Source: Malacoraja senta (lineage: Eukaryota). From it: a stretch of DNA of 64,000 bases. The stretch lies in NCBI GenBank assembly GCA_038087875.1, contig CM075994.1, forward strand, positions 8,000,001-8,064,000. The letters run 5' to 3'. Position 1 is the stretch's first letter. Each line of letters begins with the position of its first letter. The notes below the pieces were generated by a model. It was not told the origin of the DNA, did not search any database, and worked only from the letters and a program-made list of their open reading frames with translations. Shown here piece by piece: positions 14,801-46,000 of this stretch. The translations under genes were made by a program, and so were the position numbers.

Positions 14801-16528
14801 ATATAAAATTATAAAAGGACTGGACAAGCTAGATGCAGGAAAGATATTCCCAATGTTGGGCGAGTCCAGAACCAGGGGCCACAGTCTTAGAATAAAGGGG
14901 AGGCTATTTAAGACTGAGATGAGAAAATACTTTTCCACCCAGAGAGTTGTGAATTTGTGGAATTCCCTGCCACAGAGGGCAGTGGAGGCCAAGTCACTGG
15001 ATGGATTTAAGAGAGAGTTAGATAGAGCTCTAGGGGCTAGTGGAGTCAAGGGATATGGGGAGAAGGCAGGCACGGGTTATTGATTGGGGACGATCAGCCA
15101 TGATCACAATGAATGGCAGTGCTGGCTCGAAGGGCCGAATGGCCTCCTCCTGCACCTATTTTCTATGTTTCTATGTAAATGACACCATTTCCTTCCTTGT
15201 TCAGCCTTAAATTTTTTTTTAAATTATAGCTTACACTAAGACATTTTACCTGATTGAATCAGGTTAAAAAAAAAGCCCATTGTGGTGTCGATGACATAGA
15301 GACTCTTGAATGCAGTGTGAGCATTGTATATGTGTACATAACTCTGTGCTCCCCACCCCAACCCCGGTACAGTAGGCCTAGGGGTTGGGGCGGTTCACAA
15401 GCTTAATTCCCGGGATGGCGGGACTGTCATATGCTGAGAGAATGGAGCAGCTGGGCTTGTACACTCTGGAGTTTAGAAGGATAAGAGGGGATCTTATTGA
15501 AACATATAAGATTGTTAAGGGTTTGGACACGCTAGAGGCAGGAAACATGTTCCTGATGTTGGGGGAGTCCAGAACCAGGGCCCGCAGTTTAAGAATAAGG
15601 GCTAAGCCATTTAGAACGGAGACGAGGAAACACTTTTTCACACAGAGAGTTGTGAGTCTGTGGAATTCTCTGCCTCAGGAGGCCGGTTCTCTGGATACTT
15701 TCATGAGAGAGCTAGATAGGGCTCTTAAAGATAGCGGAGTCAGGGGATATGGGAACAGGGTACTGAATGTGGATGATCAGCCTTGATCACATTGAATGGC
15801 GGTGCTGGCTCGAAGGGCCGAATGGCCTACTCCTGCACCTATTGTCTATTGGGGACAGAGGAAAACGCATGCAAAGACGGTCGGCCCTCACCCGTGTACT
15901 GGCTTTCCGCTAAGATCGACTCCGCGGATTTCCACGCACTCAACCATCCTCGCAGCGGCTCCCTGTCCCGCGGAAAGCCATTTGCAGCGGAGATTTAGAC
16001 CGATTATTTCATTTTTTTTACCGGATTTCAAAATCCGCGGACATCGGCGGAGAAATCTCGTGCCTGTGTTGTCTTGGCTCTGTAGCCTCTGGGACTGTAA
16101 ATAATTGGAACAGGAACTGCTAGGTGTGGCCCTGTGTTGTGGAGGGAGTTGTGGACGTTGGCCAAGCGGATGGTTTTTGTTCCGAGATACAGCACGGAAA
16201 CAGGCCCTTCATCCCACTGAGTCCCCGCCGACCAGCGATCCCCCCGTTTACACACTAGTTCCACGTCATCCCACTTTCTCATCCACTCCCTACACACACC
16301 AGGGGGCAATTTGCACAGGGGCCGATTAATCTACAAACCCGCACAAGAGGGGAGAAGAGGGAGTGACCGGGGTGCGACTGGTCCTTGATTATGCTGCTGG
16401 CCTTGCCGAGGCAGCGTGAGGTGTAGACGGAGTCAACGGAAGGGAAACAGGCCTTTTAGTTTGGTTTCGAGAGACATCGCTACGGGAGACAATGAACTAA
16501 ACCAAACTTTTAGATGTAGCGTTTGCGG

Positions 16529-16534
16529 TTTATT
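16529..16534 (-). promoter_or_regulatory. Likely polyadenylation signal of C4
   Basis: AATAAA on the minus strand, ~110 nt after the stop codon. Confidence 0.65.
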
Positions 16535-16644
16535 GAAAGACTGAGTATGTGTTTAGCAATAGATGATTTCAGATGGAGGGGAGGGGGGGAGGGGAGGATG
16601 GGGCAGGGGAGGGGGGAGGGGAGGGGAGGGGGGACTGGCCAAAG

Positions 16645-16786
16645 TTATAATTCACATCCGGACAAGGAGAACTCTTCAATGAAGCTCTTGACTTGCTGGC
16701 AATGTTCTCTGTGGTTCCAAAGGTCACAGGTGGTTTGTGATGGGATGGCTTCGATCCAAGTGGTGTCAGTCAGGAGATACTGGGCA
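16645..16786 (-). CDS. C4: C4 terminal coding exon (~exon 41): [46 protein letters not shown]
   Basis: tgcgcag|T...TAA; 142 bp; QYLL...+WIE..P...C.......C.....F.......GC C-terminus. Confidence 0.93.
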
Positions 16787-16923
16787 CTGCGCAAAGGGAC
16801 AACAGTTTATCACCCTTTAATGTAGACTTTGGTGATGTGGCGTTGAAACCGGCCCCATCGGCCCACCGAGATCGTGCTGACCGCACGCACACACGCACAC
16901 ACGCACGCACGCACGCGCACACA

Positions 16924-16958
<35 letters not shown>

Positions 16959-16959
16959 T

Positions 16960-16999
<40 letters not shown>

Positions 17000-17029
17000 C
17001 ACACACATAGACACACACACACACACATA

Positions 17030-17111
<82 letters not shown>

Positions 17112-17164
17112 CACACACACATACACACACATACACACACACGCACACACACACACACATAGAC

Positions 17165-17195
<31 letters not shown>

Positions 17196-17198
17196 TAG

Positions 17199-17230
<32 letters not shown>

Positions 17231-17844
17231 GCACACACACTCACACGCACACGCGCACACACACACACACACACACGCACACACGCTCACACGCACACAC
17301 ACACACTCACGCACACACACACGCACACACACACACACACACACACACGCTCACACGCACACACGCTCACACGCACACACACACACACTCACGCACACAC
17401 ACACTCACACATAGACACACACACACACACATATACACGCACACACATATACACGCACACGCACACGCACACACACTCACACTCACACTCACACTCACAC
17501 TCACACTCACACTCACACTCACACTCACACTCTCACACACAGACACAGACACAGTCAGACACACACACACACACACACATAGACACACACACACACACAC
17601 TCACACTCAGACACACACACACACACACATAGACACACACACACACACACACACTCACAGACACACACACACACACACTCACACTCACACTCACACTCAC
17701 ACACACACACACACAGACACAGACACAGACACAGACACAGACACACACACACACACACTCACACATAGACACACACACACACACACACACTCACACTCAC
17801 AGACACACTCACAGACACACACACAGACACAGACATAGACACAG

Positions 17845-17875
<31 letters not shown>

Positions 17876-18039
17876 CACACACACAGACACAGACACAGAC
17901 ACAGACACACTCACACTCACACTCACACTCACACTCACACACACACACACTCACACTCACACTCACACTCACACACACAAACACACACACACACACTCAC
18001 ACACACACTCACACACACACACACACTCACACTCACACT

Positions 18040-18073
<34 letters not shown>

Positions 18074-18450
18074 CTCACACTCACACACACACTCTCACAC
18101 ACACTCACCACTCACACACACACACACACCACACACTCACACTCACACTCACACACACACACACAGACACACACACACACACTCACACACACACACACTC
18201 ACACACACTCTCACACACACACAGACACACATAGACACACACACACACACACTCACACACACACACACTCACACTCACACACACACACACACACACACTC
18301 ACACACACACACACTCACACACACTCTCACACACACACACACACACTCACACACACACACACTCACACACACACACACACTCACACACACACACTCACAC
18401 ACACACACACTCACACACACACACAAACACACACTCACACACACACACAC

Positions 18451-18484
<34 letters not shown>

Positions 18485-18515
18485 ACACACACACTCACAC
18501 ACACACACACTCACA

Positions 18516-18572
<57 letters not shown>

Positions 18573-18582
18573 ACACGCACAC

Positions 18583-18616
<34 letters not shown>

Positions 18617-18662
18617 ACACACACACTCACACACACACTCACAGACACACACACACTCACAC

Positions 18663-18696
<34 letters not shown>

Positions 18697-18700
18697 ACAC

Positions 18701-18733
<33 letters not shown>

Positions 18734-18873
18734 GACACACACATACTCACACTCACACACACACACACACACACACAGACACACACATACTCACACTCAC
18801 ACACACACACACTCACACTCACACACACACACACACTCACACACACACTCACAGACACACACACACTCACACT

Positions 18874-18906
<33 letters not shown>

Positions 18907-19016
18907 ACACATACTCACACTCACACACACACACACACACACACTCACACACACAGACACACACATACTCACACTCACACACACTCACACACACACACTC
19001 ACAGACACACACATAC

Positions 19017-25000: not shown

Positions 25001-28000
25001 GCACGTTCTCCCGTGACTGCGTGGTTTTCCTCCGAGATCTTCGGTTTCCTCCCACACTCCAAAGACGTGCAGGTTCGTGGTTAATTGGCTTGGTACGAAC
25101 ATAATTGTCCCTAGTGTGTGTAGGATAGGGGATTGTTGGTCAGCCATGACTCGGTGGGCCGAAGGGCCTGTTTCCGCACTGTATCTCTAAACTAATCTAA
25201 ATTATAACATGTTGTAAACAAACTTTTTCGATGTGTCTCATGAAGCTGAATCGGTTGGACTCATTTGTTTGATTGTAGCATCTCGCCCTGAGTAGTTATT
25301 GCAAGGTAGACATAAAAAGCTGGAGTAACTCAGCGGGACAGGCAGCATCTCTGGAGAGAAGGGATGGGTCCAATTGTGCAGGTTTGTAGGCTAATTGGCT
25401 GGGTATGAGTGTAATTTGTCCCTGTGTGTAAGATAGTATTAGTGTGCGGGGATCGCTAGTCGGCACGGACTCGGTGGGCCGAAAGGTTTCCGCGCTGTAT
25501 CTCTAAACTAACTGAACTACCTCCTCCGCTAATATTTTCCGTTTCTTATACCTAGAAGCAACGTTTCCTGAGGTTTGTTAACCTGAAGGACAAATAAAAT
25601 GGACGCCGCGTTCTAGCCACACGTACCATAATCCACAATTGGGCTGTAACAGGCAAATTCAGTCCGATCCTTCTCCAACAGATTATCAGGCAAAATATCT
25701 TGTTCATGAGGACAGCAACCTAGTGGATTTGTTCAATAAACAGTTTAGTTTCATTTATTATTGTCACGTGTATCGAGGTACAGCGAAGAGGCTTAGTTTG
25801 CGTTCTACACAGTCAGAGATTAAACCTAAATAGGTTCAAGCAATCCATAGTGGATAACACATAAGATTGTTAAGGGCTTGGACACGCTAGTGGCAGGAAA
25901 CATGTTCCCGATGTTGGGGGAGTCCAGAACCAGGGGCCACAGTTTCAGAATAAAGGGGGGGCCATTTAGAACGGAGATGAGGAAACACTTTTTCACCCAG
26001 AGAGTTGTGAATCTGTGGAATTCTCTGCCTCGGAAGGCGGTGGAGGCCAATTCTCTGGATGTTTTCATGAGAGAGTTAGATAGGGCTCTTAAAGATAGCA
26101 GATTCAGGGGATATGGGGAGAAGGTAGGAACGGGGTACTGATTGGGGATGACCAGCCATGAACACAGTGCATGGCAGTGCTGGCTCGATGGGCCGAATGG
26201 CCTACTCCTGCACCTATGTCTATTGTCATTCAATCATGGCTGATCTATCTCTCCCTCCTAACCCCATTCTACAGCCTTCTCCCCTCAATGCCTGACACCG
26301 GCACTAATCAAGAATCTATCTATCTGCACTTGGCCTCCACAGCCGTCTGTGGCAAAGAATTCCACAGATTCACCACCCTCTGACTGAAGAAATTCCTCCT
26401 CATCTCCTTCCTAAAGGAACGTCCTTTAATTCTGAGGCTGTGGCCTCCAGTCCTAGACTCTCCCACTAGTGGAACCATTCTCTCCACATCCACTCTATCC
26501 AGGCCATTTTTGGGAATTCTTTGCCACAGAAGGCCGTGGAGGACAAGTCAGTGGATATATTTAAGGCAGAGATGGATAGATTCTTGATTAGTATTCTTGG
26601 GTGTCAGGGGTTTTGGGGAGAAGGCAGGAGAATGGGGTTAGGAGGGAGAGATAGATCAGCTATAATTGAATGGCGGAGTAGACGCGATGGGCCGAATGCC
26701 TAATTCTGCTCCTATCACTTGTGAGCTTATGTGTTGTGGAGGCACACAGTGAGAGGCGGGGGGACTGGGGGCGGTTATCTGACTCTCAGTCTGAAGAAGG
26801 GTCTCGACCCGAAACGTCACCCATTCCTTCTCTCCAGAGATGCTGCCTGTCCCGCTGAGTTACTCCACAATTTAGTGTCTATCTAGGAGTTAACAGTTGC
26901 ACCGTACCATTGGCAGCCCGCCAACAGTCTGTTTGTTTTTTTGTCTTTAAAAAAGAAAAAAATGTTTTAATTACATTTAGTGTGTGTTTAAAGTTTGTGT
27001 AAATGTTCTCCGGTTGTTTTATTTGGGGGAGGGTTTTGTTTTTTTCCAGTTTCTTACCTTGCCGGAGACGCGATGTTTCCGGATCGCATTCTCCGGTTGC
27101 TCTGCGGCCTAACCATTGATGGAATGAAGGCCTCCTCGGACTGACCTTGGGCCCCACCGCAAGACATGGACTTAACATCGGAAGTCGATCACTTGCCTGG
27201 GATCGACGCTCCAACGGTCTTTACATCAGGAGCTCACAGTCTCGGGAGTCAAAGGGAAGATGTAGATTGGCTATTTCATACTAGCCAATTATAGTGTTTG
27301 TTGGTAGTGATTCCGCCTATTATGTGCTTCATATTATCTAGTGCCTGCTTATGCTGGTTAGAGTGAGTACCACCTCGGAGATGTGATGTCTGCAGATCCT
27401 TGCTGCATGTAGATTTAATAAACATGTGTTGTATCTTGATGTGTGTTCGAGTCGACTCATTACATGGTGTCAGAAGTGGGATTCGAACCCACGTTCGAGT
27501 CGACTCATTACATGGTGTCAGAAGTGGGATTCGAACCCACGTTCGAGTCGACTCATTACATGGTGTCAGAAGTGGGATTCGAACCCACGTTCGAGTCGAC
27601 TCATTACATGGTGTCAGAAGTGGGATTCGAACCCACGTTCGAGTCGACTCATTACATGGTGTCAGAAGTGGGATTCGAACCCACGTTCGAGTCGACTCAT
27701 TACATGGTGTCAGAAGTGGGATGCGAACCCACGTTCGAGTCGACTCATTACAGAAGCGATTGAACTTTTTTTCTCATTACATCACAGTGAGGAATGTGGA
27801 GGAGTCACTGTGGTGGATGTTTATGTTAAAATGTGTTTTGTGTGTTCCGTTGCTTTTTAGTGGCAACTGAAAAACATACTTGGCTAATGAAGTATGATTG
27901 TGATTGTGATTATTGTGCGTTTACCTGCAGCACACGTGCACACCGGGCCCTCACATAGCTTCGTGGTCATGGTGTTTTGTTCGGGAGGGCTGTAGGACAC

Positions 28001-31000
28001 AGTGCATCTGGTAGCTGAAAGCACACAGGCAGACACATACAGTCAGACACAGGGCGACACACAGTTAGAGGGATATTGCCCGCTCCCTCCATTCCCTGCA
28101 CATCCATGCGCCCGTCCTAAATCCTCTTAAACCCCCCACTATCGTATCTGCCTCCACTACCACCCCTGGCAGTGCATTCTAGGCCCCGCCCATCGTCTGA
28201 AGAAGGGTCTCGACCCGAAACGTCACCCATTCCTTCTCTCCAGAGATGCTGCCTGTCCCGCTGAGTTACTCCAGCACTTTGTGTCTATCTTCTGTAACCT
28301 TTGCCCCTTTCACCTCAAAGTTAGGCCCTCTGGCCTTTGATTGTAACATCCTGTGAATTAGGTTCTACCTACCCTATCTACCAAAGATCCTTTAGCGAGC
28401 AAGATAGACCACTCGACGAAAAAGACGTAGTACGGTCCATGGGCAGATTGATGGGTAATTTCCGGCCCCATTTCCGTAACCGGCTTCCGTCTCCGCACCA
28501 AAGATCCCATAGGATAATAGTGCGGAGACGGAAACATCCTCGTAAAAATCCCGGTTACGGAAACATCCTCGTAAAAATCCGGTTACGGAAACATCCTCGT
28601 AAAAATAAATGTTCTTTGGTAAAAAATCTTCTCCTCATTTTCAGAATTATAATTTATTAACACAAACTGTTCCCCGCAACGTTGATTACACCCGGGTCGG
28701 GTTATGGAAATGGATGAAAAAAAGTCCCCCGTTCCGCTCCATTGCGTACTACACGTCAGCCCATTGCATTTAGCAGGAGTGGTCGATCTTGCTCCCCTAT
28801 AGGATCTTTGCTATCTACTGTATGTCTAGTTTGACGTGTAGAAGGGTCTCGACCCGAAACGTCACCCATTCCTTCTCTCCAGAGACGCTGCCCGTCCCGC
28901 TGAGTTACTCCAGCATTTTAGTGTCTATCTTCTGTAACCCTTTGCCCCTTTCACCTCAAAGTTAGGCTCTCTAGCCTTTGATTGTAACATCCTGCAAAAA
29001 TCAGCGTGTAGGAAGGAACTGCAGACGCTGGTTTAAAACGAAGATAGACGCAAAAAGCTGGAGTAACTCAGCGGGACAGGCAGCATCTCTGGAGAGAAGG
29101 AATGGGTGACGTTCGGGTCGAGACCCTTCTTCAGACTTAGTTTAGTCTAGTTTAGAGATACAGCAAGGAAACAGGCCCCTTCAGCCCACCGAGTCCGTGC
29201 CGACCAGCGATCCCCGCACACTAATACTATCCCACACACACTGGGGACAATTGACACTTAAATCAAGCCAATTAACCTACAAACCCGCACGTCTTTGGAG
29301 TGTGGGAGGAAACCGAAGATGTTGGAGGAATCCCACGCAGGTCACGGGGAGAACGTACAAACTCCGTACAGACAGCACCCGTGGTCGGAATCGAACCCGG
29401 GGTCTCAGGCGCTGTGAGTCAGCAACTCTANNNNNNNNNNNNNNNNNNNNNNNNNNNNNNNNNNNNNNNNNNNNNNNNNNNNNNNNNNNNNNNNNNNNNN
29501 NNNNNNNNNNNNNNNNNNNNNNNNNNNNNNNNNNNNNNNNNNNNNNNNNNNNNNNNNNNNNNNNNNNNNNNNNNNNNNNNNNNNNNNNNNNNNNNNNNNN
29601 NNNNNNNNNNNNNNNNNNNNNNNNNNNNNNAAAATTAAACTATACTCTTTTTGTTTCATCCTAACTATCGGCCTATCTTTTTTCCATTGTTAGTTAACTT
29701 CTGGCATAGTCGCTAAACTAACTAAACTAAATTAACTAAACAAAGACAGGAGAGGGCAGTTTTATGAGTCTTTTGGACAATGGTTTGGAGGCTAGGAATG
29801 AACTGCAGATGCTGGTTTACACCGAAGATAGACACAGAATGCTGGAGTAACTCAGCGGGTCAGGCAGCATCTCTGGGGAGAAGGAACGGGTGACGTTTCG
29901 GGGTCGAGACCCTTCTTCAGGCTGAGAGTCAGGGAAAGGGAAATGAGTGATATGCAAGGGTGTGAAAACGACAGATCAAAGAGGACAGTGATCAATGAAA
30001 TATAAGGTACACAAAAATGCTGGAGAAACTCAGCGGGTGCAGCAGCATCTATGGAGCGAAGGAAATAGGTAACGTTTCGGGTTGAAACCCTTCTTCAGAC
30101 AATCAGTAATATTTAATCAGGAGGACAGTGGAACTAGTTGGAGAACTAGAGTGGGGGAGGGACGGAGAGAGAGGGGTAAAGCAAGGGTTACTTGAAGTTA
30201 GAGAGGTCAATGTTCATACCGCTGGGGTGTAAGCTGCCCGTGAAATATGAGGTGCTGTTCCTCCAATTAGCGCTGGGCCTGACTCTGACAGTGGAGGAGG
30301 CCCAGGACAGAAAGGTCAGTGTGGGAATGGGAGGGGGAGTTAAAGTGTTTGGCAACCAGGAGATCAGGTAGGTTTAGACGGACTGAGCGGAGGTGTTCAG
30401 CGGAACGATCGCCGAGCCTGCGCTTGTTCTCGCCGATGTACAGGAGTCCACACCTGGAGCAGCGTTCCCAACCTGCTTGGGGGGGCCGACAACTGAATCA
30501 CGCGCGTGTACCAGAGGACATAGGTTAAAGGTGAGAGGGCAAGATTCAACACAAACCTGACGAGCAACGTCTCCACACAGAGGGTGGTGGGTGTACGGAA
30601 CGAGCTGCCAGAGGAGGGAGTTGAGGCTGGGGCTATTGCAACCGGGAGATTGCTCGGCCTAGGTAGACTGAGTGTGTGGGAATGGGAGGGGGAGTTAAAG
30701 TGTTTGGCAACCGGGAGATCAGGTAGGCCATTCCTTCTCTCCGTCGCCCATTCCTTCTCTCCAGAGATGCTGCCTGACCTGCTGAGTTTGGTTTAGTTCA
30801 GAGATACAGCGTGGAGGTGAGCATGGCTTTAAGGTGAGAGGTGAGAAAGTTTAAAGGAGACCAGATTAAGTGGGACCCGTTGGGTCCCAGCATCACACGG
30901 GAAGGCTGGTCACCCAACGTAACATTCCACCCTCTCCACCAATTCCAATATCGCTGGCCAGTGGGGGGGGGTTCTGTTGCACTAGTATACGTATTGTGGG

Positions 31001-34000
31001 CCGAAGGGACTGCTTTCCAGAGGGCTAGTAGGGACATTGTGGGCCGGATGGATTATTGGGCTGGCAGCTCAATCACTGAGGCCAGGCAGCTCAGTCACTG
31101 AGGCCTGGCAGTATAGTCACTCAGACCTGGCAGGCTGGCAGCTGAGAAACTGCCAGAAATCTTTACAGAGGGTGGTGGGTGCCTGGAACGCGCTGCCAGG
31201 GGTGGTGGTGGAGGCAGATACGATGGTGGCGCTTTGGGGCGTCACGGTGGCGCAGCGGTAGAGTTGCTGACATACAGCGCTTTCAGCGCCAGAGACCCGG
31301 GTTCGATCCCGACTACGGGGTGCTTGCCTGTACGGAGTTTGTACGTTCTCCCCGTGACCCGCGTGGGTTTTCTCCAAGATCTTCGCTTTCCTCCCATACT
31401 ACGAAGATCTCGGAGAAAACCCACGCGGGTCACGGGGAGAACGTACAAACTCCGTACAGACAGCGCCACTGGTCGGGATGGAACCCGGGTCTCCGGCGCT
31501 GTGAGGCAGCAACTCTACCGCTGCGCCACCGTGACGAGCAGTTACTCCAGCTTACGGTGCCCACAGGAGACACAATCTGCTCCGCCGTTAGCTGACCTGA
31601 TCGAGGTACTTGGTGTCTGGCTCCAGCCCGCTGAGGAGGGTGATGTCAACCACGGCCATGCCCGTCCCCGAGATCAAGTTCTCATGTTCACCATCTTGCC
31701 TTCAAAGGGGGGAAGATCACAAAGGAAAGAGGTTTAGTACGGGGGTTACGGGCAGAAGGCAGGAGAAAGCATTTCGCTCGAGGAGGGCTAGAATACAAAA
31801 ACAGGGATCGTAAAACAACATCGATAGTATAGAGAGCAAACTCAACGCTAGCATTTATTTCAAGAGGGCTGGTATAGGGAGGTTTCACGGCAGTCGGGTC
31901 ACGACCCATGACCCGTACTGTTGCTACGCTACGCCAAATGGATTACACGCGATGAACTGCAGGCAGGCACTTACCTTTGTTTCCAGCGTAGCGGGCCCGT
32001 TAAAACCCGCCGAATGGTCAATTTTTGCGCTGTAAATAATTATGGAAATCGGGATAAGCGTGAGAGACATTTAGCCAACTTCAGAATTCAAAAAGTGAGG
32101 AGAAATGACGGTAGATTGAAGCGAGAGCTGAAAGGAACAACAACAGCCAGAGTGCTTGGCGAACATTGGCCGTTTGCTCACTGCATTTCATCAACTAAGG
32201 CATTATTTGTGTTTTTTCTTGATTCCTTTGGCATCTAAAAAGTTTCAGAAGGGATAATCGCCCCTGTTTCTCGTGGGTTTTTACATACAAAAATAAAACG
32301 CCTCTGAGGCAAAATTTACAACCAGATTTACCACTTCTGAGACTTTTTAGATACCAAAGAAATAAAAAACAAAACAAATAATGCCTTACCGTTAATGAAA
32401 TGCAGCGAACAAACGCGATAATTCCCAATATTTTCAATTCCGATATCTGCACGGCCAATGTTCGCCAAGCACTTTAGCTGCTGTTGTCCCTTCAGCTCTT
32501 GCTTCTCTTTACCTTCATTTCGCTTCACTTTGGGAATTCTGAAGTTGGGTACATGTCTCTCACACTTACCCCGACTTCCACAATTTTTTACAGCGAAAAA
32601 ATCCACTATTTTAGCGTTTTTTTAACGGGTAGGAAAGTACGCGTTTCTAGCATTAATAACATATACCGGAAGTGACGGGTGTCTTCCAGATGGATTGAGA
32701 GGCCCCGTGCGTCGAGCACTTTGAACCGGTGACCTTCCGTGAAACCTCCCTATACAAAAACAGGGATGTAATGCTGAGGCTCTATAAGGCGCTGGTCAGG
32801 CCACATTAGGAATATTGTGAGCAGTTTTGGGCTCCATATCTGAGGAAGGATGTGCTGGCTCCGGAGAGGGTCCAGAGGAGAATGATCCCAGGAATGAGTG
32901 GGTTAACCTATGATGAGCGTTTGCCGGCACTGGGCCTGTACTCGCTGGAGTTTAGAAGGATGAGGGGGCAGCTCATTGAAACGTACAGAATAGTGAAAGG
33001 CGTGGATAGAGTGGATGTGGGGAGGATGTTTCCACCAGTGGGAGAGTCCAGGACCAGAGGGCACAGCCTCAGAATTAAAGGACGTTCTTTAAGGATGGAG
33101 ATGAGGAGGAATTTCTTTGGTCAGTGGGTGGTGAATCTGTGGGATTCTTTACCACAGAAGGCTGTGGAGGCCAAGTCAGTGGATATATTTAAGGCAGAGA
33201 TAGATAGATTCTTGATTAGTACGGGTGTCAGGGGTTACGGGGCGAAGGCTGGAGAATGGGGTTAGGAGGGAGAGATAGATCAGCCACGATTTAATGGCGG
33301 AGTAGACTTGATGGGCCGAATGGCCTAATTCTGCTCCTATTCCTTCTGACTTTATGAGATCAAACTTAGAAGTTGATACTGCACATTACGACTGCATTAA
33401 AAATGGCGATGGGATGAGGAAACAGTTGTCACCACCAGGGTATCTTCCAACCTTACGGTGTGAAAGTTGAAGATAGACACAGGATGCTGGAGTAACTCAG
33501 CGGGACAGGCGGCATCTCTGGAGAGAAGGAATGGGTGATGTTTCGGGTCGAGACCCTTCCTCAGGCCACAAGGGTGGTGGGTGTATGGAACGAGCTGCTG
33601 GAGGAGATAATTGAGGCTTGGACCATCACAAAGTCTAAGTAACATCCAGTCTGCAGAAGGGGCTGGACCGTAACGTCACCCATCCCTTATCTCCACAGAT
33701 GCTGCCTGTCCTGCTGAGTTACTCCAGCGTTTTGTGTCTTATGTGAGAAACACAGGGACAGGGACAGGGACAGGGAAAGATCTAGAGGGATATGGGGCAA
33801 AGGTGGGACTGGTGTAGATGGGGCATGTTGGGCGGCATGGACATGTTGGGCCGAAGGGCCTGTATCCGCGCTGAATGGCTCTATGAAGGATAGAACACGG
33901 CCAGATGGAAGATGGAGTGTTGTTCCTTGTGTTTGAAGAGATGGCTGTCCAACAGATAAGTCATTGAACCAACAGTGCAAGATGAACTAACTCCAGTCAT

Positions 34001-37000
34001 GCTCACCACATGCAGACTTCATAGAAGACCGTCTGGTACTTGGCGGAGTCTGGGACGCTTCTTTTCCTTAGTCCAACCAGGCCGCGTTGCTTCCGGTGGG
34101 ATTCAGCTGGAAGAGACACATCCCAGGTTGCATTAGGGCACTAATCCCACTAGCTGGTGTCCCCCACCCCGTCTCTACGGTGTGTGGCACTGCAGGATGT
34201 GAACTCCTCCTCCAACAGGCCAGTCGCAGTGAGACCAGGCCCCACACACAGGGGAGAGACGGAGACGGAGACGGAGACGGAGACGGAGACGGAGAGGGAG
34301 AGGGAGAGGAGGGAGAGGGAGAGGGAGAGGGAGAGGGAGAGGGAGGAGGGAGACGGAGACGGAGACGGAGACAGAGACGGAGAGGGAGAGGGAGAGGGAG
34401 AGGGAGAGGGAGAGGGAGAGGGAGAGGGAGAGGGAGACGGGAGACGGGGAGACGGGAGACGGGAGACGGGAGACGGGAGACGGGAGACGGGAGACGAGAG
34501 CCAGAGACAAAGAGAAGGACAGAGAGAAAGGGATAGAGAGAGAAAGAGATACGGAGAGGGAAGGGGCGATGGCTTGGGGTGAGAGAGTGAAAGAAAAGGG
34601 TAGAGAGGGAGAGGGAGGGAGGGTGGGGTAGAGAGGGGGGAAGAGAGGGAGAGGGGGAACGGGGAGGAGGGAAAAGAGAGGGAGAGAGGAAAAAGAGAGG
34701 GAAAGAAAGAGAGAGAGGGAAAGGAAGGGGGAGAGAGGGGGGTAGAGAGGAGGTTGATGAGAGAGGGGGAGAGAGGAGGAAGTCTAAAGGAATGTGGATA
34801 AGAAAGGTTGAGGGGGACATGGGCCACACCTGGGGACGAGCTCAGATGGGGTATCTTGGTTGGCATGGGTCAGTAGGGCCGAAGGGCCTGTTTTCTTCTG
34901 AAGGACGCAAGAAATCGCAGCGAATTGTGGACGCAGCCCAGACCATCACACAAACCGACCTCCCTTCCACTGTCTCCATCTACACCTCACGCTGCCTCGG
35001 CAAGGCCAGCAGCATAATCAAGGACCAGTCTCACCCGGGCTACTCCCTCTTCTCCCCTCTCCCATCGGGCAAGAGGTACAGAAGTGTGAAAACACACACC
35101 TCCAGATTCAGGGACAGTTTCTTCCCAGCTGTTATCAGGCAACTGAACCATCCTACCACAACCAGAGAGCGGTCCTGAACGACTATCTACCTCATTGGTG
35201 ACACTCGGACTATCCTTGATCGGACTTTGCTGGCTTTACCTTGTACTAAACGTTATTCCCTTATCATGTATCTGTACACTGTGGACGGCTCATGTATTGT
35301 CTTTCTGCTGACTGGATAGCATGCAACTAAAGCTTTTCATAGGGTCATGAGGAATAGGAGTAGAATTAGGCCATTCGGCCCATCAAGTCCACTCTGCCAT
35401 TCAATTATGGCTGATCTATCTCTCCCTCCTAACCCCATTCTCCTGCCTTCTCCCCGTAACCCCTGACACCGCACTAATCAAGAATCTATCACCGCCTTAA
35501 AAATATCCACTGACTTGGCCTCCACAGCCTTCTGTGGCAAAGAATTGCGCAGATTCACCGCCCTCTGGCTAAAGAAATTCCTCCTCATCCCCATCCTAAC
35601 ATTCTTTAATTCTGAGGCTGTGGCCTCTGGTCCTAGACTCTCCCACCAGTGGAAACATCCTCTCCACATCCACTCTATCCAGGCCTTTCACTATTCCGTG
35701 CACTTCAATGTGGTCCCCCCCCACCCTCATTCTTCTAAACTCCAGCGAGTACAGGCCCAGTGCCGACTCTGTGCCTCGGTATAGGTGACCATAAGCTGAA
35801 CTGGAACGGAAAAGCTTTGGTGAAACAGGGCTTTGTATGCTCACTTACCATGCTTGATGTGGTTTTTGATGGTGATCGAGAGGTGAAGCTTGTCACAACT
35901 GCCAGAACCAAGCTCCATGATGTGGGATATAGACCGTAACTGGAATGTCATAGAGTCACAGAGTCACAGAGTGATACAGTGTGGAAACAGGGCCTTCGGC
36001 CCAACTTGCCCACACCGGCCAACATGTCCCATCTACACTAGTCATAGAGTGATACAGTGTGGAAACAGGCCCTTCGGCCCAACTTGCCCACACCGGCCAA
36101 CATGTCCCAGCTACACTAGTCACTGAGTGATACAGCGTGGAAACAGGCCAACTTGCCCAACTTGCCCACACCGGCCAACATGTCCCATCTACACTAGTCA
36201 TAGAGTGATACAGCGTGGAAACAGGCCCAACTTGCCCAACTTGCCCACACCGGCCAACATGCCCCAGCTACACTAGTCATAGAGAGATACAGTGTGGAAA
36301 CAGGCCCTTCAGCCCAACTTGCCCACACCAACCAACATGTCCCAGCTACACTAGTCATAGAGTGATACAGTGTGGAAACAGGCCCTTCAGCCCAACTCGC
36401 CCATACCGGCCAACATGTCCCAGCTACACCAGTCGTAGAGTGATACAGTGTGGAAACAGGCCCTTCGGCCCAACTCGCCCGCACCGGCCAACATGACCCA
36501 GCTACACTAGTCCCACCTGCCTGCGCTTGGTCCATATCCCTCCAAACCTGTCCTATCCATGTATCTGTCTAACTGTTTCTTAAATGTTGGGATAGTCCCA
36601 GCCTCAACTACCTCCTCTGGCAGCTTGTTCCATACACCCACCAACCTTTGTGTGAAAAAGTTACCCCTCAGATTCCTATTAAATCTTTTCCCCTTCACCT
36701 TAAACCTATGTCCTCTGGTCCTCGATTCCCCTACTCTGGGCAAGAGACTCTGTGCGTCTACCCGATCTATTCCTCTCATGATCTAATACACCTCTGTAAG
36801 ATCACCCCTCATCCTCCTGCGCTCCAAGGAAGAGAGACCCAGCCTGCTCAACCTCTCCTGTAGCTCACACCCTCTAGTCCAGGCAACATCCTCGTAAATC
36901 TTCTCTGTCCCTGTCCCAGCTTGCAGAAACAGTTGCATAAACAAGCTCCCATCTTATATTCCCCGTCCGTTGTTATATGCAGGGTAACGAATAACAAAGC

Positions 37001-40000
37001 TAAGTTCCCACACCAAAATTATTATATCGTTCAAGGAATCTTTTCCTCTAGCCACTATGATTGGAGCTAGTGGGGTTAGGAGATTATATCGATACGCATC
37101 CACAAACTCTCCACGAGACAGTCAATGCCGTGGAAAGTTAAATCTTCAAAACACAGTCTCTTGATTAATAGTTTCTTTACTGTCGTGGTAAAAACAGTGA
37201 GATATTCATCCAACCTTGTTTAAGTACATTTTGATCTTACTCATGGTCAAACTGGTGCATGGTCAAACTGGTGCATAGTCAAACTGGCGCATGGTCAAAC
37301 TTACTCATGGTCAAACTGGTGCATGGTCAAACTGGTGCATGGTCAAACTGGTGCATGGTCAAACTGGTGCATGGTCAAACTGGTGCATGGTCAAACTGGT
37401 GCATGGTCAAACTGGGGCATGGTCAAACTGGTGCATGGTCAAACTGGTGCATGGTCAAACTGGTGCATGGTCAAACTGGTGCATGGTCAAACTGGTGCAT
37501 GGTCAAACTGGGGCATGGTCAAACTGGTGCATGGTCAAACTGGTGCATGGTCAAACTGGGGCATGGTCAAACTGGTGCATGGTCAAACTGGGGCATGGTC
37601 AAACTGGTGCATGGTCAAACTCCATGCATGGTCAAACTGGTGCATGGTCAAACTGGTGCATGGTGGAACTGGTGCATGGTGGAACTGGGGCATGGTGGAA
37701 CTGGTGCATGGTCAAGCTGGTGCATGGTCAAGCTGGTGCATGGTCAAGCTGGTGCATGGTCAAGCTGGTGCATGGTCAAGCTGGTGCATGGTCAAGCTGG
37801 TGCATGGTCAAGCTGGTGCATGGTCAAGCTGGTGCATGGTCAAACTGGTGCATGGTCAAACTCCATGGATACTCAAACTGGTGCAGGGTCTAAAGCTGGG
37901 AGTTCTCCCCCATGCTCCTTCAAGACTAAAACTAAAACTACTAGGGTGTCTGCGTGAGAATCCCAGCCGCAAACACGCCCCCGACTACGTATAAATCCCA
38001 CCCACATCATTACAGGCTGATAAAATGTAACGGTATCTGGTTATAGTTTATAACATACAGAGACAAGCTCAATGGCTACTACAGATTCCATCTCCTGCAC
38101 TGCCAAGTGCTACATAAAAGCCTCTCAGATGCCACTGTCTTATCTGCCTCCACTAACAACTTTTGTGCGTGCAAAAAAAACCAGATGTCCCGCACATCTC
38201 CTTTAAAGACACAAGACTTATAGGTGAAGAAGGGTGTAGGAAGGAACAGGTTTAAACTGAAGATAGACCCACAAAGCTGGAGTAACTCAGCGGGACGGGC
38301 AGCATCTCTGGAGAGAAGGAATGGGTGACGTTTCGGGTCGAGACCTTTCTCCAGACTGAGTGTTGGGGGAGGGGGATAGGAGAGATATAGACGGTGATGT
38401 AGAGAGATATGGAACAAATGAATGAAAGATGTGCAGAAAAGTCACGGTGATAAAGGAAGCAGGCCATTGTTAGCTGTGGGCTAGGTGAAAACGAGTTACA
38501 GACAATGAGACTCAACAAGACAACTGAGCAGGACCAAACTGAAGTATGCCCCACTCCAACCTACCTCGGAGTGACCCTTGACAGGACCCTATCCTTCAAG
38601 GAACATCTCAAAAGAACAGCAGCTAAGGTGAAGTCCAGAAACAATCTCCTCAGTCAGCTTGTTGGCTCAAAGTGGGGGGGCAGCAGCCCCCACACTGCGC
38701 ATTTCAGCACTAGCCCTTGCATTTTCTTCAGCCGAATATTGCGCCCCTGTTTGGTCCAGGTCATCCCACACACACCATGTGGACACCCAATTGAACTCAA
38801 CAATGAGGATCATCACAGGAACAATCCGCTCAACACCACTCCCCTGGCTCCCTGTCCTATCCAATATAGCACCTCCACACATCCGGCGAGTAGCCCTCAC
38901 TCAAAGGATGCTCCAAAAGACCAAAAACTCCCCTCATCTGCCAATTCACATGGACATCTTCAACCCACCCACTGCTCGACTTCCATCTAGACGACCAATT
39001 TGGAAGAACCCACCACCAGCTGATTTCACCACCCAATCAGCTTGGAAAAAGGAATGGGAGTCCAAGGACGTCTCAAATATACATCTGGTGTCAGACCCAA
39101 CCCTACCGGTCCCTGGCACCAATCTCCCAAGGAAGCAGTGGACGACGCTCAATAGATTCAGGACTGGACGGCCCCTGCTTGGCCAGCCTTCACAAATGGG
39201 GCAGCAGCCCAACCCCACGGTGTGCTTGTGGAGAGCAGCAAACAATGCTCTTTAGATTCTGGAGTAGTTCCTGAGGATTGGAGGGTAGCAAACGTAACCC
39301 CACTTTTTAAGAAGGGAGAGAGAGAGAAAACGGGGAATTACAGACCAGTTAGTCTAACATCGGTAGTGGGGAAACTGCTAGAGTCAGTTTATTAAAGATG
39401 GGACAGCAGCACATTGGGAAAGTGGTGAAATCATTGGACAAAGTCAGCATGGATTTACGAAAGGTAAATCATGTCTGACGAATCTTATAGAATTTTTCGA
39501 GGATGTAACGAGTAGAGTGGATAGGGGAGAACCAGTGGATGTGTTATATCTGGACTTTCAGAAGGCTTTCGACAAGGTACCACATAAGAGATTAGGATAC
39601 AAACTTAAATCACACGGTATTGGGGGTTCAGTATTGATGTGGATAGAGAACTGGCTGGCAAACAGGAAGCAAAGAGTAGGAGTAAACGGGTCCTTTTCAC
39701 AATGGCAGGCAGTGACTAGTGGGGTACCGCAAGGCTCAGTGCTGGGACCCCAGCTATTTACAATTTATATTAATGAACTGGATGAGGGAATTGAAAGCAA
39801 CATCTCCAAGTTTGCGGATGACACTAAGCTGGGGGGCAGTGTTAGCTGTGAGGAGGATGCTAGGAGACTGCAAGGTGACTTGGATAGGCTGGGTGAGTGG
39901 GCAAATGTTTGGCAGATGCAGTATAATGTGGATAAATGTGAGGGTATCCACTTTGGTGGCAAAAACGGGAAGGCAGACTATTATCTAAATGGTGGCCGAT

Positions 40001-43000
40001 TAGGAAATGGGGAGATGCAGCGAGACCTGGGTGTCATGGTACACCAGTCATTGAAAGTAGGCATGCAGGTGCAGCAGGCAGTGAAGAAAGCGAATGGTAT
40101 GTTGGCTTTCATAGCAAGAGGATTTGAGTATAGGAGCAGGGAGGTTCTACTGCAGTTGTACAGGGTCTTGGTGAGACCACACCTGGAGTATTGCGTACAG
40201 TTTTGGTCTCCAAATCTGAGGAAGGACATTATAGCCATAGAGGGAGTGCAGAGAAGGTTCACCAGACTGATTCCTGGGATGTCAGGACTTTCATATGAAG
40301 AAAGACTGGATAGACTTGGCTTAAACTCGCTAGAATTTAGGAGATTGAGAGGGGATCTTATAGAAACGCACAAAATTCTTATGGGGTTGGACAGGCTAGA
40401 TGCAGGAAGATTGTTCCCGATGTTGGGGAAGTCCAGGACAAGGGGTCACAGCTTAAGGATAAGGGGGAAATCCTTTAAAACCGAGATGAGAAAAACTTTT
40501 TTCACACAGAGAGTGGTGAATCTCTGGAACTCTCTGCCACAGAGGGTAGTTAAGGCCAGTTCATTGGCTATATTTAAGAGGGAGTTAGATGTGGCCCTTG
40601 TGGCTAAAGGGATCAGGGGGTATGGAGAGAAGGCAGGTACGGGATACTGAGTTGGATGATCAGCCATGATCATATTGAATGGCGGTGCAGGCTCGAAGGG
40701 CCGAATGGCCTACTCCTGCACCTATTTTCTATGTTTCTATGTATCTAATGCAACACATCATTGAAGCATGCCCACAAAAAAGACTTAAAGGAGGACTTGT
40801 CACCCTTCATACAGCAAATCAAGAGGCAACTGCTTGGCTAAAGGACTTTGCCTTCGCTAAATAAATAAACAAGATAACTGTGAAACCAGTACACAGTCTT
40901 GGGTGGGGGAGGGATGGAGAGAGAGGGGATGCGAGGGGGTCTCGAATACTGTGGCACAGTGTTCAGAAAATACTCACATTTAGTTTCCCCTTTCCTTTTC
41001 CAGAGACCTCGACCAAAATCTTCTCGTCAAGGGGGAACTAGTGGAGAGAGAGTTGCGTTAAAACCAACCGGCAGAAGGTGTAATTCTACCTCCCATTCCC
41101 ACCATGACCTTTCTGTCCTCGGTCTCCTCCATTGTCAGAGTGAGGCTAAACGCAAATTGGAGGAACAGCATCTCATATTTCGCTTGGGCAGCTTACACCC
41201 CAGTGGTATGAATATTGATTTCTATCACTTCAGGTAGCCCCGGCATTCCCTCTCTCTCCATCCCTCCCCCACCCAAGTCACACCAGCTTCTCGTTCTCAC
41301 CCAACAAACAGCTAACAACGGCCTGTTTCCTTTATCATCGTAACTTTTTAGCATATCTTTCATTCATTGTTCTTTATCTCTCCACATCACCGTCTATATC
41401 ACTCGTTTCCCTTATCCCAGAACCAATCTGAAAGGCCTCGACCCTTATCCCTTATCCCTGACTCTCAGTCTGAAGAAGGGTCTCGACCCGAAACGTCACC
41501 CATTCGTCCTCCCCAGAGATGCTGCCTATCCCCGCTGAGTTACTCCAGCATTTTGTGTTTATCTTTGGATTGCGTCTGCAGTTCCTTCTTACAAAGAAGG
41601 TTCCGTGACACGATGGCACAGCGGTAGAGTTGCTGTCTCGGTACACTAGACAATAACAAGCTAACCTAAACTAAATTTACCTCTTGTAGATCCCTTTGAT
41701 AACAGCGTATCATTGAACAAGTATCAATTGAGACAATCGCTTGTCAGTGTCCATGGCCTCCCACCGATAGACCGTGTATTTAAGAGACAATGGTGTATTG
41801 CGGGGGAGGTCACAGGGAAACTGTTTTTTTCCTCAAGGCTGATTTCTTACCAAGACAGCTTTTTTTCCTACCAAAGTCCCATCCTGTTCTCGTGGAAAAA
41901 TTCCCATTGAGTCTATTTCTCCCGGATCTAGTGTTCGACTTTTCAACAAGATTTTCATCTTTAGGTTTAGATTTGGAGATACAGCGCAGAAACAGGCCCT
42001 TCGGCCCACTGAGTCCGCGCCGACCAGCGACCCCTACTAACACTATCCGACACACGCGAGGGACAATTTTTCTCTGGTACCTCTGCCAATTCTCTCCAGT
42101 CTGGTTTACTGGAAAAGTTTTGTGTTTGTTTACCGACTCAGGCACCTGATGTAAAGTACGTTGGCAAGATCTTATCGCCTACCAAGGTCAAAGTCAGTGT
42201 CGTGCTTGGTGGACGGAGCTGAACTGAACGAGCTAAATCCTGCTCAGGTACAGTTAGACAGGTACATGGATATTGTGCAGGGAAGGAACAGCAGATGCTG
42301 GTTTAAACCAAAATAGACACAAAATGCTAGAGTAACTCAGCGGGACAGGCAGCGTCTCTGGGTGAGAAGGAATGGGTGACGTTTCATGTCGAGACCCTTC
42401 TTCAGACTGACAGATACGAACTAGCAGCTTGTTTTAATGTTTTAATGAATTGTACACCTTCAATAACTTTTGGAACCTACAGAGGGCCACCTCAAAGTCC
42501 AGTCAAGAGTCTTGTAGGGTGGGCTACCTATTAGTTCAATCAAGAGTCAATGGTCTTGTTGGCTGGGCTCCAAGTCCAGTTGAAGTTCAAGTCTTCTTGG
42601 ATTGGCTACATAGAACATAGACAATAGATGCAGGAGTAGGCCATTCGGCCCTTCGAGCCAGCACCGCCATTCAATATGATCATGGCTGATCATCCAAAAT
42701 CAGTACCCCGTTCCTGCTTTATGAGTACAGGAGTAAAGAGGTCCTTCAGCAGTTGTACAGAGCCCTGGCGAGACCACACCTGGAGCATTGTGTGCAGTTT
42801 TGGTCCTCTAATTTGAGGAAGGACATTCTTGCTATTGAGGCAGTGCAGCGTAGGTTCACGAGATTGATCCCAGGGATGGCGGGACTGTCATATGAGGAAT
42901 GATTGGAAAGACTAGGCTTGTATTCACTGGAATTTAGAAGGATGAGGGGGAATCTTATAGAAACATATAAAATTATAAAAGGACTGGACAAGCTAGATGC

Positions 43001-46000
43001 AGGAAAAATGTTCCCAATGTTGGGCGAGTCCAGAACCAGGGGCCACAGTCTTAGAAAAGGGGAGGCCATTTAAAACTGAGATGAGAAAAAACGTTTTCAC
43101 CCAGAGAGTCGTGAATTTGTGGAATTCTCTGCCACAGAGGGCAGTGGAGGCCAAATCACTGGATGGATTTAAGAGAGAGTTAGATAGAGCTCTAGGGGCT
43201 AGTGGAATCAAGGGATATGAGGAGAAGGCAGGCACGGGATATTGATTGGGGATGATCAGCCATGATCACATTGAATGGCGGTGCTGGCTCGAAGGGCCGA
43301 ATGGACCTCCTCCTGCACCTATTGTCTATGTTGCTATGTTTTCTTGGGGCTATGGAGAGCAGTGCTGTTCATTTAGCTGATAGCTCCAATTCACACTTTA
43401 GCTGAACCCTCACACTCTAGTCTTACCTTCAGCTCCTCCTGTGTCAGGGCGGTTTTCTGGCTCAGTAGAACGTCCGAGCTCTTTCCAAGGGCGCTGAACT
43501 TAATCCGGAAGTTAAAGTCCTCCTCTCGCTCGTACAGGGCGGCGTGGTATTTCGACAGGGCCTCCAACGCCACCACCGTGTCCTGTCAAGTAAAGCAGGC
43601 CCAATGTTGGGAACGCAGGAAAACTTTTCCCAATGTCCCCAATGTTGGGGGACGTGCTTGCTATTGAGGGAGTGCAGCGAAGGTTCACCAGGTTAATTCC
43701 CGGGATGGCGGGACTAACGTATGATGTAAGAATGGGTCGACTGGGCTTGTATTCACTGGAATTTAGAGGGATCTTATGGAAACATATAAAATTCTTAAGG
43801 GATTGGACAGGCGAGATGCAGGAAAAATGTTCCCGACGTTGGGGGAGTCCAGAACCAGGGGCCACACAGTTTAAGAATAAGGGGTCGGCCATTTAGGACT
43901 GAGATGAGGAAAAGATTTTTCACCCAGAGAGTTGTGAATCTGTGGAATTCTCTGCCACAGAAGGCAGTGGAGGCCGATTCACTGGATGTTTTCACGAGAG
44001 AGATATGGCGCTTAGGGCTAACGGAATCAAGGGATTATGGGGAGAAGGCAGGAACGGGGTACTGATTGTGGATGATCAGCCATGATCATATTGAATGGTG
44101 GTGCTGGCTCGAAGGGCCGAATGGCCCACTCCTGCACCCATTTTTTAACGTATCTATGTTAGACCTGACTTTACACCTTCGACTTTAGAGGGACAGCTTA
44201 GAAACAGGCCCTTCGGCCCACTGCGTCCACGCCGACCAGCGATCACCCCGTACACAAGCACTATCCTTGGCTCAAGATTTCAGCACCTGCAGTTCCTTTA
44301 TCCCCACTTTTCACAAGTTCACAAGTGACAGGAGTAGAATTAGGCCATTCGGCCCATCGTGTCTAGTCCAACATTCAATCGTGGCTGATCTCTGCCTCCT
44401 AATCCCATTTTCCTGCCTTCTCCCCATAACCCTTGACACCCGTTCTAATCAAAAATTTGTGTATCCCTGCCATAAAAATATCCACTGACTTGGCCTCCAC
44501 AGCCCTCTGTGGCAATGAGTTCCACAGATTAACTGCCCTCTGACTAAAGAAGTTCCTCCTCACCTCCTTTCCAAAAGAGCGCCCTTTAATTCTGAGGCTA
44601 CGACCTCTAATCCTAGACTCTCCCACTAGTGGAAACATCCTCTCCACATCCACTCTATCCAGGCCTTTCACTATTCTGTACGTTTCAATGAGGTCCCCCC
44701 CTCATCCTTCTAAACTCCAGCGAGTACAGGCCCAGTGCCGGCAAACGCTCATCATAGGTTAACCCACTCATTCCTGGGATCATTCTTGTAAACCTCCTCT
44801 GGACCCTCTCCAGAGCCGGCACACATCCAGGGCCTGTATACACAAACAGGGATGTAACGCTGAGGCTCTATAAGGCGCTGGTCAGGCCCCATTTGGAATA
44901 TTGTGAGCAGTTTTGGGCCCCGTATCTGAGGAAGGATGTGCTGGCTCTGGAGAGGGTCAAGAGGAGGTTTACAAGAATGATCCCAGGAATGAGTGGGTTA
45001 ACATATGATGAGCGTTTGCCAGCACTGGGCCTGTACTCGCTGGAGTTTAGAAGGATGAGGGGGGGGTCCTCATTGAAACATACAGAATAGTGAAAGGCTC
45101 GGATAGATTGGATGTGGAGAGGATGTTTCCACTAGTGGGAGAGTCTAGGACCAGAGGCCATAGTCTTAGAATAAAGACAATTCCTTTAGGAAGGAGATGA
45201 GGAGGAATTTCTTTATTCAGAGGGCGGTGAATGTGTGGAATTCTTTGCCACAGACGGCTGTGGAGGCCACAAGTTAGTGGGTATTTTTAAGGCAGAGATG
45301 GATAGATTCTTGATTAGTACGGGTGTCAGGGGTTACGGGGAGAAGGCAGGAGAATGGGGTTAGGAGAGATAGATCAGCCATGATTGAATGGCGGAGGAGA
45401 CCTGATGGGCCGAATGGCCTAATTCTGCTCCTATTCCTTATCACCTTATGACGAAATGGAACACTGTCGCCGCCCTTTGTGTGGTGCCTCTTTGCATACC
45501 TTGTGAGTGGGAGGTAAAACAAGGAATCTCGCTGTGACTTGTCGCATGAGGAATAAAGTGTCATTCATTCACCTGTGTGTGTTTATCGTCAACGTTATCG
45601 GCAGTGAGGTGGGGGTGGGTTCCCTGTGGGGGGGGTCATCATGGGGTGGGTGTTCCCTGTGGGGGGGTCATCATGAGGGGAGGGTGGGTTCCCTGTGGGG
45701 GGGTCATCATGAGGGGGGGTTCCTTGTGGTGGGGTCATCATGAGGGGGGGGGTTGGGTTCCCTGTGGGGGGGTCATCATGAGGGGGGGGTTCCCTGTGGG
45801 GGGGTCATCATGAGGTGGGGGTGGGTTCCCTGTGGGGGGGTCATCATGAGGTGGGGGTGGGTTCCCTGTGGGGGGGTCATCATGAGGGGGGGGGTTCCCT
45901 GTGGGGGGGTCATCATGGGGGGGGGGGTTCCCTGTGGGGGGGTCATCATGAGGGGGGGGTGGGTTCCCTGTGGGGGGGTCATCATGAGGGGGGGTCATCA

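Follow-up and report, generated by a model that had tools for sequence, protein, structure and literature searches.

In the 64,000-nucleotide stretch of Malacoraja senta contig CM075994.1 analysed here (positions 8,000,001 to 8,064,000; hereafter the window), we examined an insertion at 27261-27752 in which a 204-bp long terminal repeat (LTR) is followed by six tandem units, each consisting of a 28-nt complement of the tRNA-Leu 3' end and the last 20 nt of the LTR. The best explanation, which we consider probable, is that an LTR retrotransposon primed by tRNA-Leu gave rise to an aberrant cDNA, and that this array is its integrated, inherited form. We are highly confident that it originated from read-through of 1-methyladenosine at tRNA position 58 (m1A58), and it is reasonably likely that reverse transcriptase (RT) passed over the tRNA at least twice; the production of all six units in one round is suggested with far more reserve.

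Structure of the array and identity of the tRNA copy

The components of the insertion are as follows:

27256..27260, plus strand: left target-site copy GAAGA, from the empty-site sequence in related species
27261..27464, plus strand: 204-bp LTR, TGTA..TACA (TG..CA), of a high-copy LTR-retrotransposon family, with limits from contig alignments in three relatives
27441..27453, plus strand: U5 stretch identical to the tRNA-sense T-arm at 11 of 13 bases, for which pairing with the over-long copy is possible
27465..27512, plus strand: unit 1, tRNA-Leu 3' complement (nt 76-49) and last 20 nt of the LTR
27513..27704, plus strand: units 2-5, with no difference from unit 1
27705..27752, plus strand: unit 6, terminating on the CA end of the LTR
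27723, plus strand: T>G, facing A58 of the tRNA; the array has no other variant
27753..27757, plus strand: right target-site copy GAAGC (4/5)

The LTR with its six-unit array is a real feature, and the coordinates bear out the description given by the initial annotation (an LTR bounded by TGTA..TACA, six units and a final TACA). The 28-nt copies begin at 27465, 27513, 27561, 27609, 27657 and 27705, with the last 20 nt of the LTR after each, and Tandem Repeats Finder (TRF) reports the array with a period of 48 (6.4 copies, 99%). Units 1-5 are identical, whereas unit 6 carries the T>G change at 27723, which had escaped the initial annotation. This change lies at copy position 19 of the unit, corresponding to tRNA position 58, and is the sole variant within 288 bp; all 24 CpG dinucleotides of the array are intact. 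The tRNA match covers 28-29 nt, with the G after nt 28 fitting the tRNA and the LTR alike, so that one base is shared at the junction.

An AATAAA motif is present at 27417 within the LTR. The 3' end of the element comprises just 20 nt of U5, with no second complete LTR and no U3-R, and no purine run of at least 8 nt was found on either strand of the element, which is thus without a polypurine tract (PPT). The 288 bp of primer-binding-site (PBS)/U5 units inside the target-site duplication make the insertion different from an ordinary solo LTR. No further copies of the LTR or of the array were found within the 64-kb window. The flanks GAAGA and GAAGC, previously proposed to be an imperfect 5-bp duplication, agree at 4 of 5 bases. 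In related species, the empty host repeat has GAAGA: its loose ends read ...AAGGGAAGAGAT before 27760, with GAAGA present once, which suits a duplication of 5 bp whose right copy has changed at one base.

The 28-mer had been recognized as the complement of a tRNA-Leu 3' end that includes CCA and runs past position 58. Genes called tRNA-Leu(CAG) by ARAGORN agree with this, matching copy positions 4-29 and placing the copy at nt 76-49. Comparison with 18 gene matches at 14 tRNA-gene loci (apparently eukaryotic contigs within bacterial assemblies) showed that none of them is preceded by TGG and that all 18 have T at position 19. Since the copy contains the CCA complement and no gene match is preceded by TGG, the copy stems from mature tRNA. 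At the level of sequence, its extent demonstrates copying past m1A58 to the base of the T-arm. Within the window, ARAGORN predicted no tRNA genes and Rfam gave only sub-threshold tmRNA-clan hits, in which no tRNA is named; no tRNA-clan hit fell inside the LTR, and Rfam gave nothing relevant on L013, one of the loci described below. The LTR has no tRNA-like promoter, just the 13-nt T-arm-like stretch. As a separate observation, L123-L136 are contigs in bacterial genome records with eukaryote-type tRNA-Leu genes and tRNA clusters, probably representing host contamination.

We also studied the LTR family in contigs from sequencing runs of three related species (including X1, X2 and X6). It is abundant in all three, with a summed contig depth of about 1e4-9e4 at the LTR ends versus 9-28 on an exon, a measure that does not equal copy number. 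The contigs start aligning at 27261 and stop at 27464, which supports the LTR limits, and 57 X1 contigs ending at the latter position have unlike flanks. No coding region belonging to the family of the studied LTR was seen, and none of the loci described below shares this LTR. Public sequencing runs included none with half of the words of the stretch, and no RNA run was listed as carrying it. One X6 contig with a joint 27291-27651 consists of the first 31 nt of the LTR, 31 other letters with an inverted repeat, and then an LTR end with a tRNA match of at least 25 nt; it is perhaps another aberrant product.

Over-long copies of the Leu primer-binding site at other loci

Public contig collections were scanned for a CA end followed by the 18-nt PBS, which yielded 2 viral loci and at least 120 metagenome loci (a sample). 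The matches (at least 125) represent at least 108 distinct contexts, 107 of them with 28 nt available; the 26-nt pattern was absent from viral contigs. Among the matches listed, 22 of the 107 contexts match 8 or 9 of positions 20-28 and none match 7, with 0.14 expected by chance. These over-long contexts are spread over 13 of 80 LTR-end families, including one family with 7 normal and 5 long loci and another with one of each. Judging from these contigs, copying of the tRNA past nt 18 is a recurrent class and not a one-off. The share of one in five presumably exceeds the true rate per insertion: every aberrant junction is unique, whereas normal copies are collapsed in assemblies.

After L060, L099 and L102 had been removed as repeats of the same insertion, 21 events were left, in which the tRNA copy is about 30-57 nt long. 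Position 19, opposite A58, is other than T in 8 of the 21 events (7 A and 1 C) versus 0 of 18 tRNA genes (p 0.004), and the unselected position 29 shows no mismatch in any of the 21 (p 0.003 against position 19). The longest copies span the anticodon stem without the intron seen in related genes of other species, which is consistent with, but no proof of, a mature template. A coupled mismatch at position 20 (6/8) was considered as an additional RT signature and rejected, as T occurs there in 8 of 18 gene matches. Short-read chimeras are unlikely to have created the long PBSs, since PBS and gene share just 15 nt and the copies differ from the genes at position 19.

The sequence that follows the tRNA copy varies. 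Three of the 21 events return to their own LTR end: L014 (98-bp LTR, 45-nt copy, about 21 nt of LTR end and a 4-5 bp duplication), L065 (190-bp LTR, 45-nt copy, 5 nt of LTR end and a 4-of-5 duplication) and L091, in which a 49-nt tRNA copy is followed by the LTR end and a second tRNA copy of 42 nt. L065 may alternatively be read as having an 8-bp imperfect duplication and no LTR end. Other events land in gag (L013) or in pol/integrase-like DNA (L036 and L094), turn into the inverted own LTR (L043 and L118), show a 14-bp duplication (L050), or continue as far as a complete 3' LTR and have a 5-bp duplication without mismatch (L071). No landing-site class could be assigned to about half of the 21 events. 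Target duplications sought blindly in single loci turned up no more often than by chance, and the results were used just for L014, whose LTR start is fixed by terminal inverted repeats.

Two further observations concern individual loci. L071 (1004-1708) and L057 belong to a TRIM-sized family (TRIM, terminal-repeat retrotransposon in miniature) with 190-bp LTRs, an interior of about 320 bp and 5-bp duplications; a tRNA copy of 46 nt opens the interior of L071, and new non-autonomous variants may arise in this way. In L008 (1501-1699), two normal PBS and gag starts lie 179 bp apart in a local duplication.

Proposed origin and competing explanations

The initial annotation had offered two readings of the array, and the first of these, a fossil of m1A58 read-through with template switching, is supported by the variant opposite A58, by the recurrent over-long copies with position-58 errors, by L014, L065 and L091, and by the 18-nt PBS in a relative's copy of the LTR. 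In this scheme, RT would have copied U3-R-U5 during plus-strand strong-stop synthesis, passed m1A58 and reached the T-arm base (28-29 nt). As the resulting end mismatches the genomic PBS, RT would instead have switched, via the single base in common, to the minus-strand DNA at a point 20 nt before the end of U5, where the T-arm-like U5 probably assisted by pairing with the newly made T-arm copy. With the tRNA still attached, the U5 end and the tRNA would have been recopied at least two times and position 58 miscopied once, as the unit-6 variant and L091 suggest. The last round may have ended on a tRNA-free CA, giving two integrase-competent ends and the 5-bp duplication, and some of the five identical units may reflect later slippage across the 20-bp direct repeat. 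The product is unable to replicate and most likely neutral.

The number of passes can be judged from the errors at position 58. With an error rate of 8/21 per pass, the probability of at most one error in six passes is 0.26, so that six passes are allowed. A random variant would fall opposite A58 with a chance of 2% (6 of 288 sites), which favours at least two passes.

It is likely, judging by the sequence of U5, that its T-arm-like stretch guided the fixed re-entry point. The 11/13 match at 27441-27453 compares with 9/13 for the best of 105 other LTR ends, and pairing with the extension, as previously proposed, is possible. The fold energy of the fold-back is unremarkable, being matched by 114 of 500 shuffled U5 sequences, and was rejected as proof of a guiding hairpin. 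In addition, position 27451 is G in the studied copy and C in most LTR copies of relatives (about 70% of depth in X1); with G, U5 contains a perfect palindrome of 10 bp and can pair better with the T-arm copy.

Several observations weigh against this scheme in addition to the fold energy. The G in unit 6 is not found among the eight position-58 errors elsewhere (7 A, 1 C), and G is the commonest base after normal 18-nt PBSs (27/85); the unit-6 variant may thus reflect a point mutation, a base of the genome or a mistake in the assembly. The five identical junctions are unlike L091, where one copy is longer than the other. Despite the lack of CpG decay in the array, the two target-site copies are mismatched at one base, which mildly favours later expansion, and TRF lists 58 rows in the window, with many other tandem arrays. 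As for the relatives, all evidence for an 18-nt PBS comes from a single contig (X2 record 12, which aligns at 27395-27482, i.e. to PBS position 18, and continues with 136 other bases); the LTR end in the X6 contig with the joint 27291-27651 is followed by a PBS-like match of at least 25 nt; and the high depth over positions 20-29 may come from tRNA genes as well as from long PBSs, in proportions that depth alone does not separate.

The best-surviving alternative starts from a single read-through and re-entry, giving an LTR with one unit as in L014 and L065, and attributes the other units to genomic minisatellite expansion and the unit-6 variant to ordinary mutation. Such single-unit analogues do exist, the 20-bp direct repeat and the hairpin favour slippage, and the genome is rich in minisatellites; the atypical G and the mismatch already present in the target duplication also suit this explanation. 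However, a random change would hit position 58 in only about 2% of cases and CpG would be hit first, and L091 documents repeated passes during reverse transcription. Overall, we consider expansion from one unit unlikely, although by no means negligible.

A family with a normal 28-nt PBS, in which the studied copy arose by internal deletion (from the PBS to the 3' LTR end) and subsequent slippage, is much less credible. It could account for the X6 contig and for the depth over positions 20-29, and complementarity of up to 22 nt is reported for retroviruses (PMC8599865). Against it, X2 record 12 has 18 nt followed by other sequence, and in other families the long copies vary in length and in what follows them, whereas normal members have 18 nt.

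The second reading of the initial annotation, a minimal non-autonomous TRIM-like element that carries six priming sites and propagates in this form, is not sustained and appears extremely improbable: its termini are intact, it has a target duplication and tandem TRIM arrays are known (PMC7215508), but a purine tract of at least 8 nt and a 3' U3-R are absent, the 3' end being just 20 nt of U5, and no array was seen in the three DNA runs of the relatives, which all have zero depth over 27516-27611 and list no joint leading backward, although contigs can drop rare forms. Equally improbable is an assembly artefact inflating one unit to six, since the units are in exact register with one substitution and both flanks continue one host repeat, even though the unit number is known from the assembly alone and the window has an assembly gap at 29431-29630.

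Returning to the origin by read-through, the locus itself is probably a neutral accident; the recurrent class is the part of interest and is countable from assemblies. It was long unsettled if m1A58 stops plus-strand synthesis in vivo at all, and how tightly (PMC8599865). Integrated and inherited products in many LTR families would indicate that this stop is leaky in germlines and that the products are rescued by template switching. How often the stop leaks, where copying ends and how often tRNA modifications are miscopied would then become countable from assemblies alone, and L071 suggests a route to short non-autonomous elements. More speculatively, and with clearly lower confidence than the origin of the array itself, m1A58 read-through with minus-strand re-entry might be a common, undescribed route that fixes copies of mature modified tRNA in animal germlines and makes internally deleted elements, with the fossils recording in-vivo RT errors at tRNA modifications; at the present locus, the most extreme example, RT would have been kept looping by T-arm mimicry in U5, with all six units made in one particle.

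Host locus and comparison with known systems

The insertion is located in the following context:

27100..27910, no strand assigned: high-copy host repeat(s) holding the insertion and interrupted by 27261-27752; limits approximate, from contig depth in relatives
27925..28014, minus strand: exon of the host gene (complement C3/C4 type), with its donor GT at 27924-27923

Summed contig depth reaches 1e4-1e6 in the host repeat, compared with 9-28 on the exon. The evidence for the host gene comes from minus-strand TED_complement exons. The exon at 27925-28014 has its best hit, a weak one, to C4 gamma (E 0.064; C3, E 0.79); the earlier assignment to C4 is given here as the broader complement C3/C4 type, and the preference for C4 gamma is weak. 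The array is intronic, and its distance from the exon donor, estimated before at about 170 bp, was measured as 172 bp. Any effect of the B-boxes or tRNA 3' fragments on the host pre-mRNA is hypothetical. The SINEs of the stretch suggest a cartilaginous fish as the host species.

Elsewhere in the window, the assembly gap mentioned above (200 bp) lies inside the host gene, and a tandem segmental duplication of about 8.8 kb (1-8808 and 10111-18939, 94% identity) holds a long CA-type array and an RT fragment. An RT-encoding repeat occurs five times (3100-4332, 13210-14440, 39248-40747, 48064-49856 and 56366-57928) with 97-98% identity and RVT_1 hits on four copies, and is putatively a recently active family. 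A weak THAP-domain hit (E 5e-4) was obtained at 32331-32621 on the minus strand, in a repeat that recurs near 44830-45453 and 62089-62705. Many intron minisatellites with periods of 14-78 bp are also present, at 35962-36512, 37242-37890, 52424-53139, 58810-59525 and 60508-61272.

The studied element may belong to the tRNA-Leu-primed Ty3/Gypsy elements of the Mag/SURL type. It shares with them the 18-nt PBS after the CA end, and gag-like frames in other loci and the 5-bp duplications in L057 and L071 agree with such elements; for the studied LTR, this assignment is drawn only from the PBS and the duplication length. We found no account of inherited insertions composed of an LTR, an over-long tRNA copy and an LTR end in the full-text collection searched, which lacks most subscription papers and older retrovirology, so a prior description is possible.

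In HIV-1 and M-MLV, m1A58 causes plus-strand strong-stop at 18 nt and RT copies more of the tRNA when m1A58 is lacking, the read-through end being described as unable to finish and integrate (PMC8599865). The copying of primer tRNA past 18 nt is the same here; those data come from in vitro reactions and mutant cells with a product called non-integrating, whereas the studied array is integrated, inherited and repeated. Miscopying at position 58 has been noted in small-RNA libraries (PMC2359750). Ty1 composite insertions include PBS+2 intermediates, which likewise place extra tRNA-complementary bases at an integrated template-switch junction (PMC2939329). The Ty1 case involves 2 extra nt in a laboratory yeast assay, while the studied array has 10-11 extra nt (up to about 39 at other loci) and returns to the LTR end. 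Multiple-PBS variants of HIV-1 show that several PBS copies can arise in replication (PMC1084362); they derive from engineered PBS mutants reverting in cell culture, and the text consulted mentions no over-long copies spaced by LTR ends.

Among short elements, tandem-array TRIMs such as Cassandra also alternate LTR-derived and internal units, with template switching versus recombination/slippage being debated as their source (PMC7215508). Cassandra-type units have complete LTRs, and their internal domain contains a PBS and a PPT, whereas the studied unit has 20 nt of U5 and a tRNA copy, with no PPT. Helenus and Ajax TRIMs are short LTR elements with tRNA-related sequence, and some vertebrate ones use a Leu primer (PMC10886601); in these, the tRNA/5S-like part is a promoter within the LTR and lacks complementarity to the PBS, unlike the antisense primer copy outside the LTR in the studied array. 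The array has the character of a read-through/template-switch product and is neither a TRIM, as it has no second LTR and no PPT, nor a plain solo LTR. The contigs analysed here establish that read-through ends occur beside LTRs in genomic sequence, complete with flanks and duplications.
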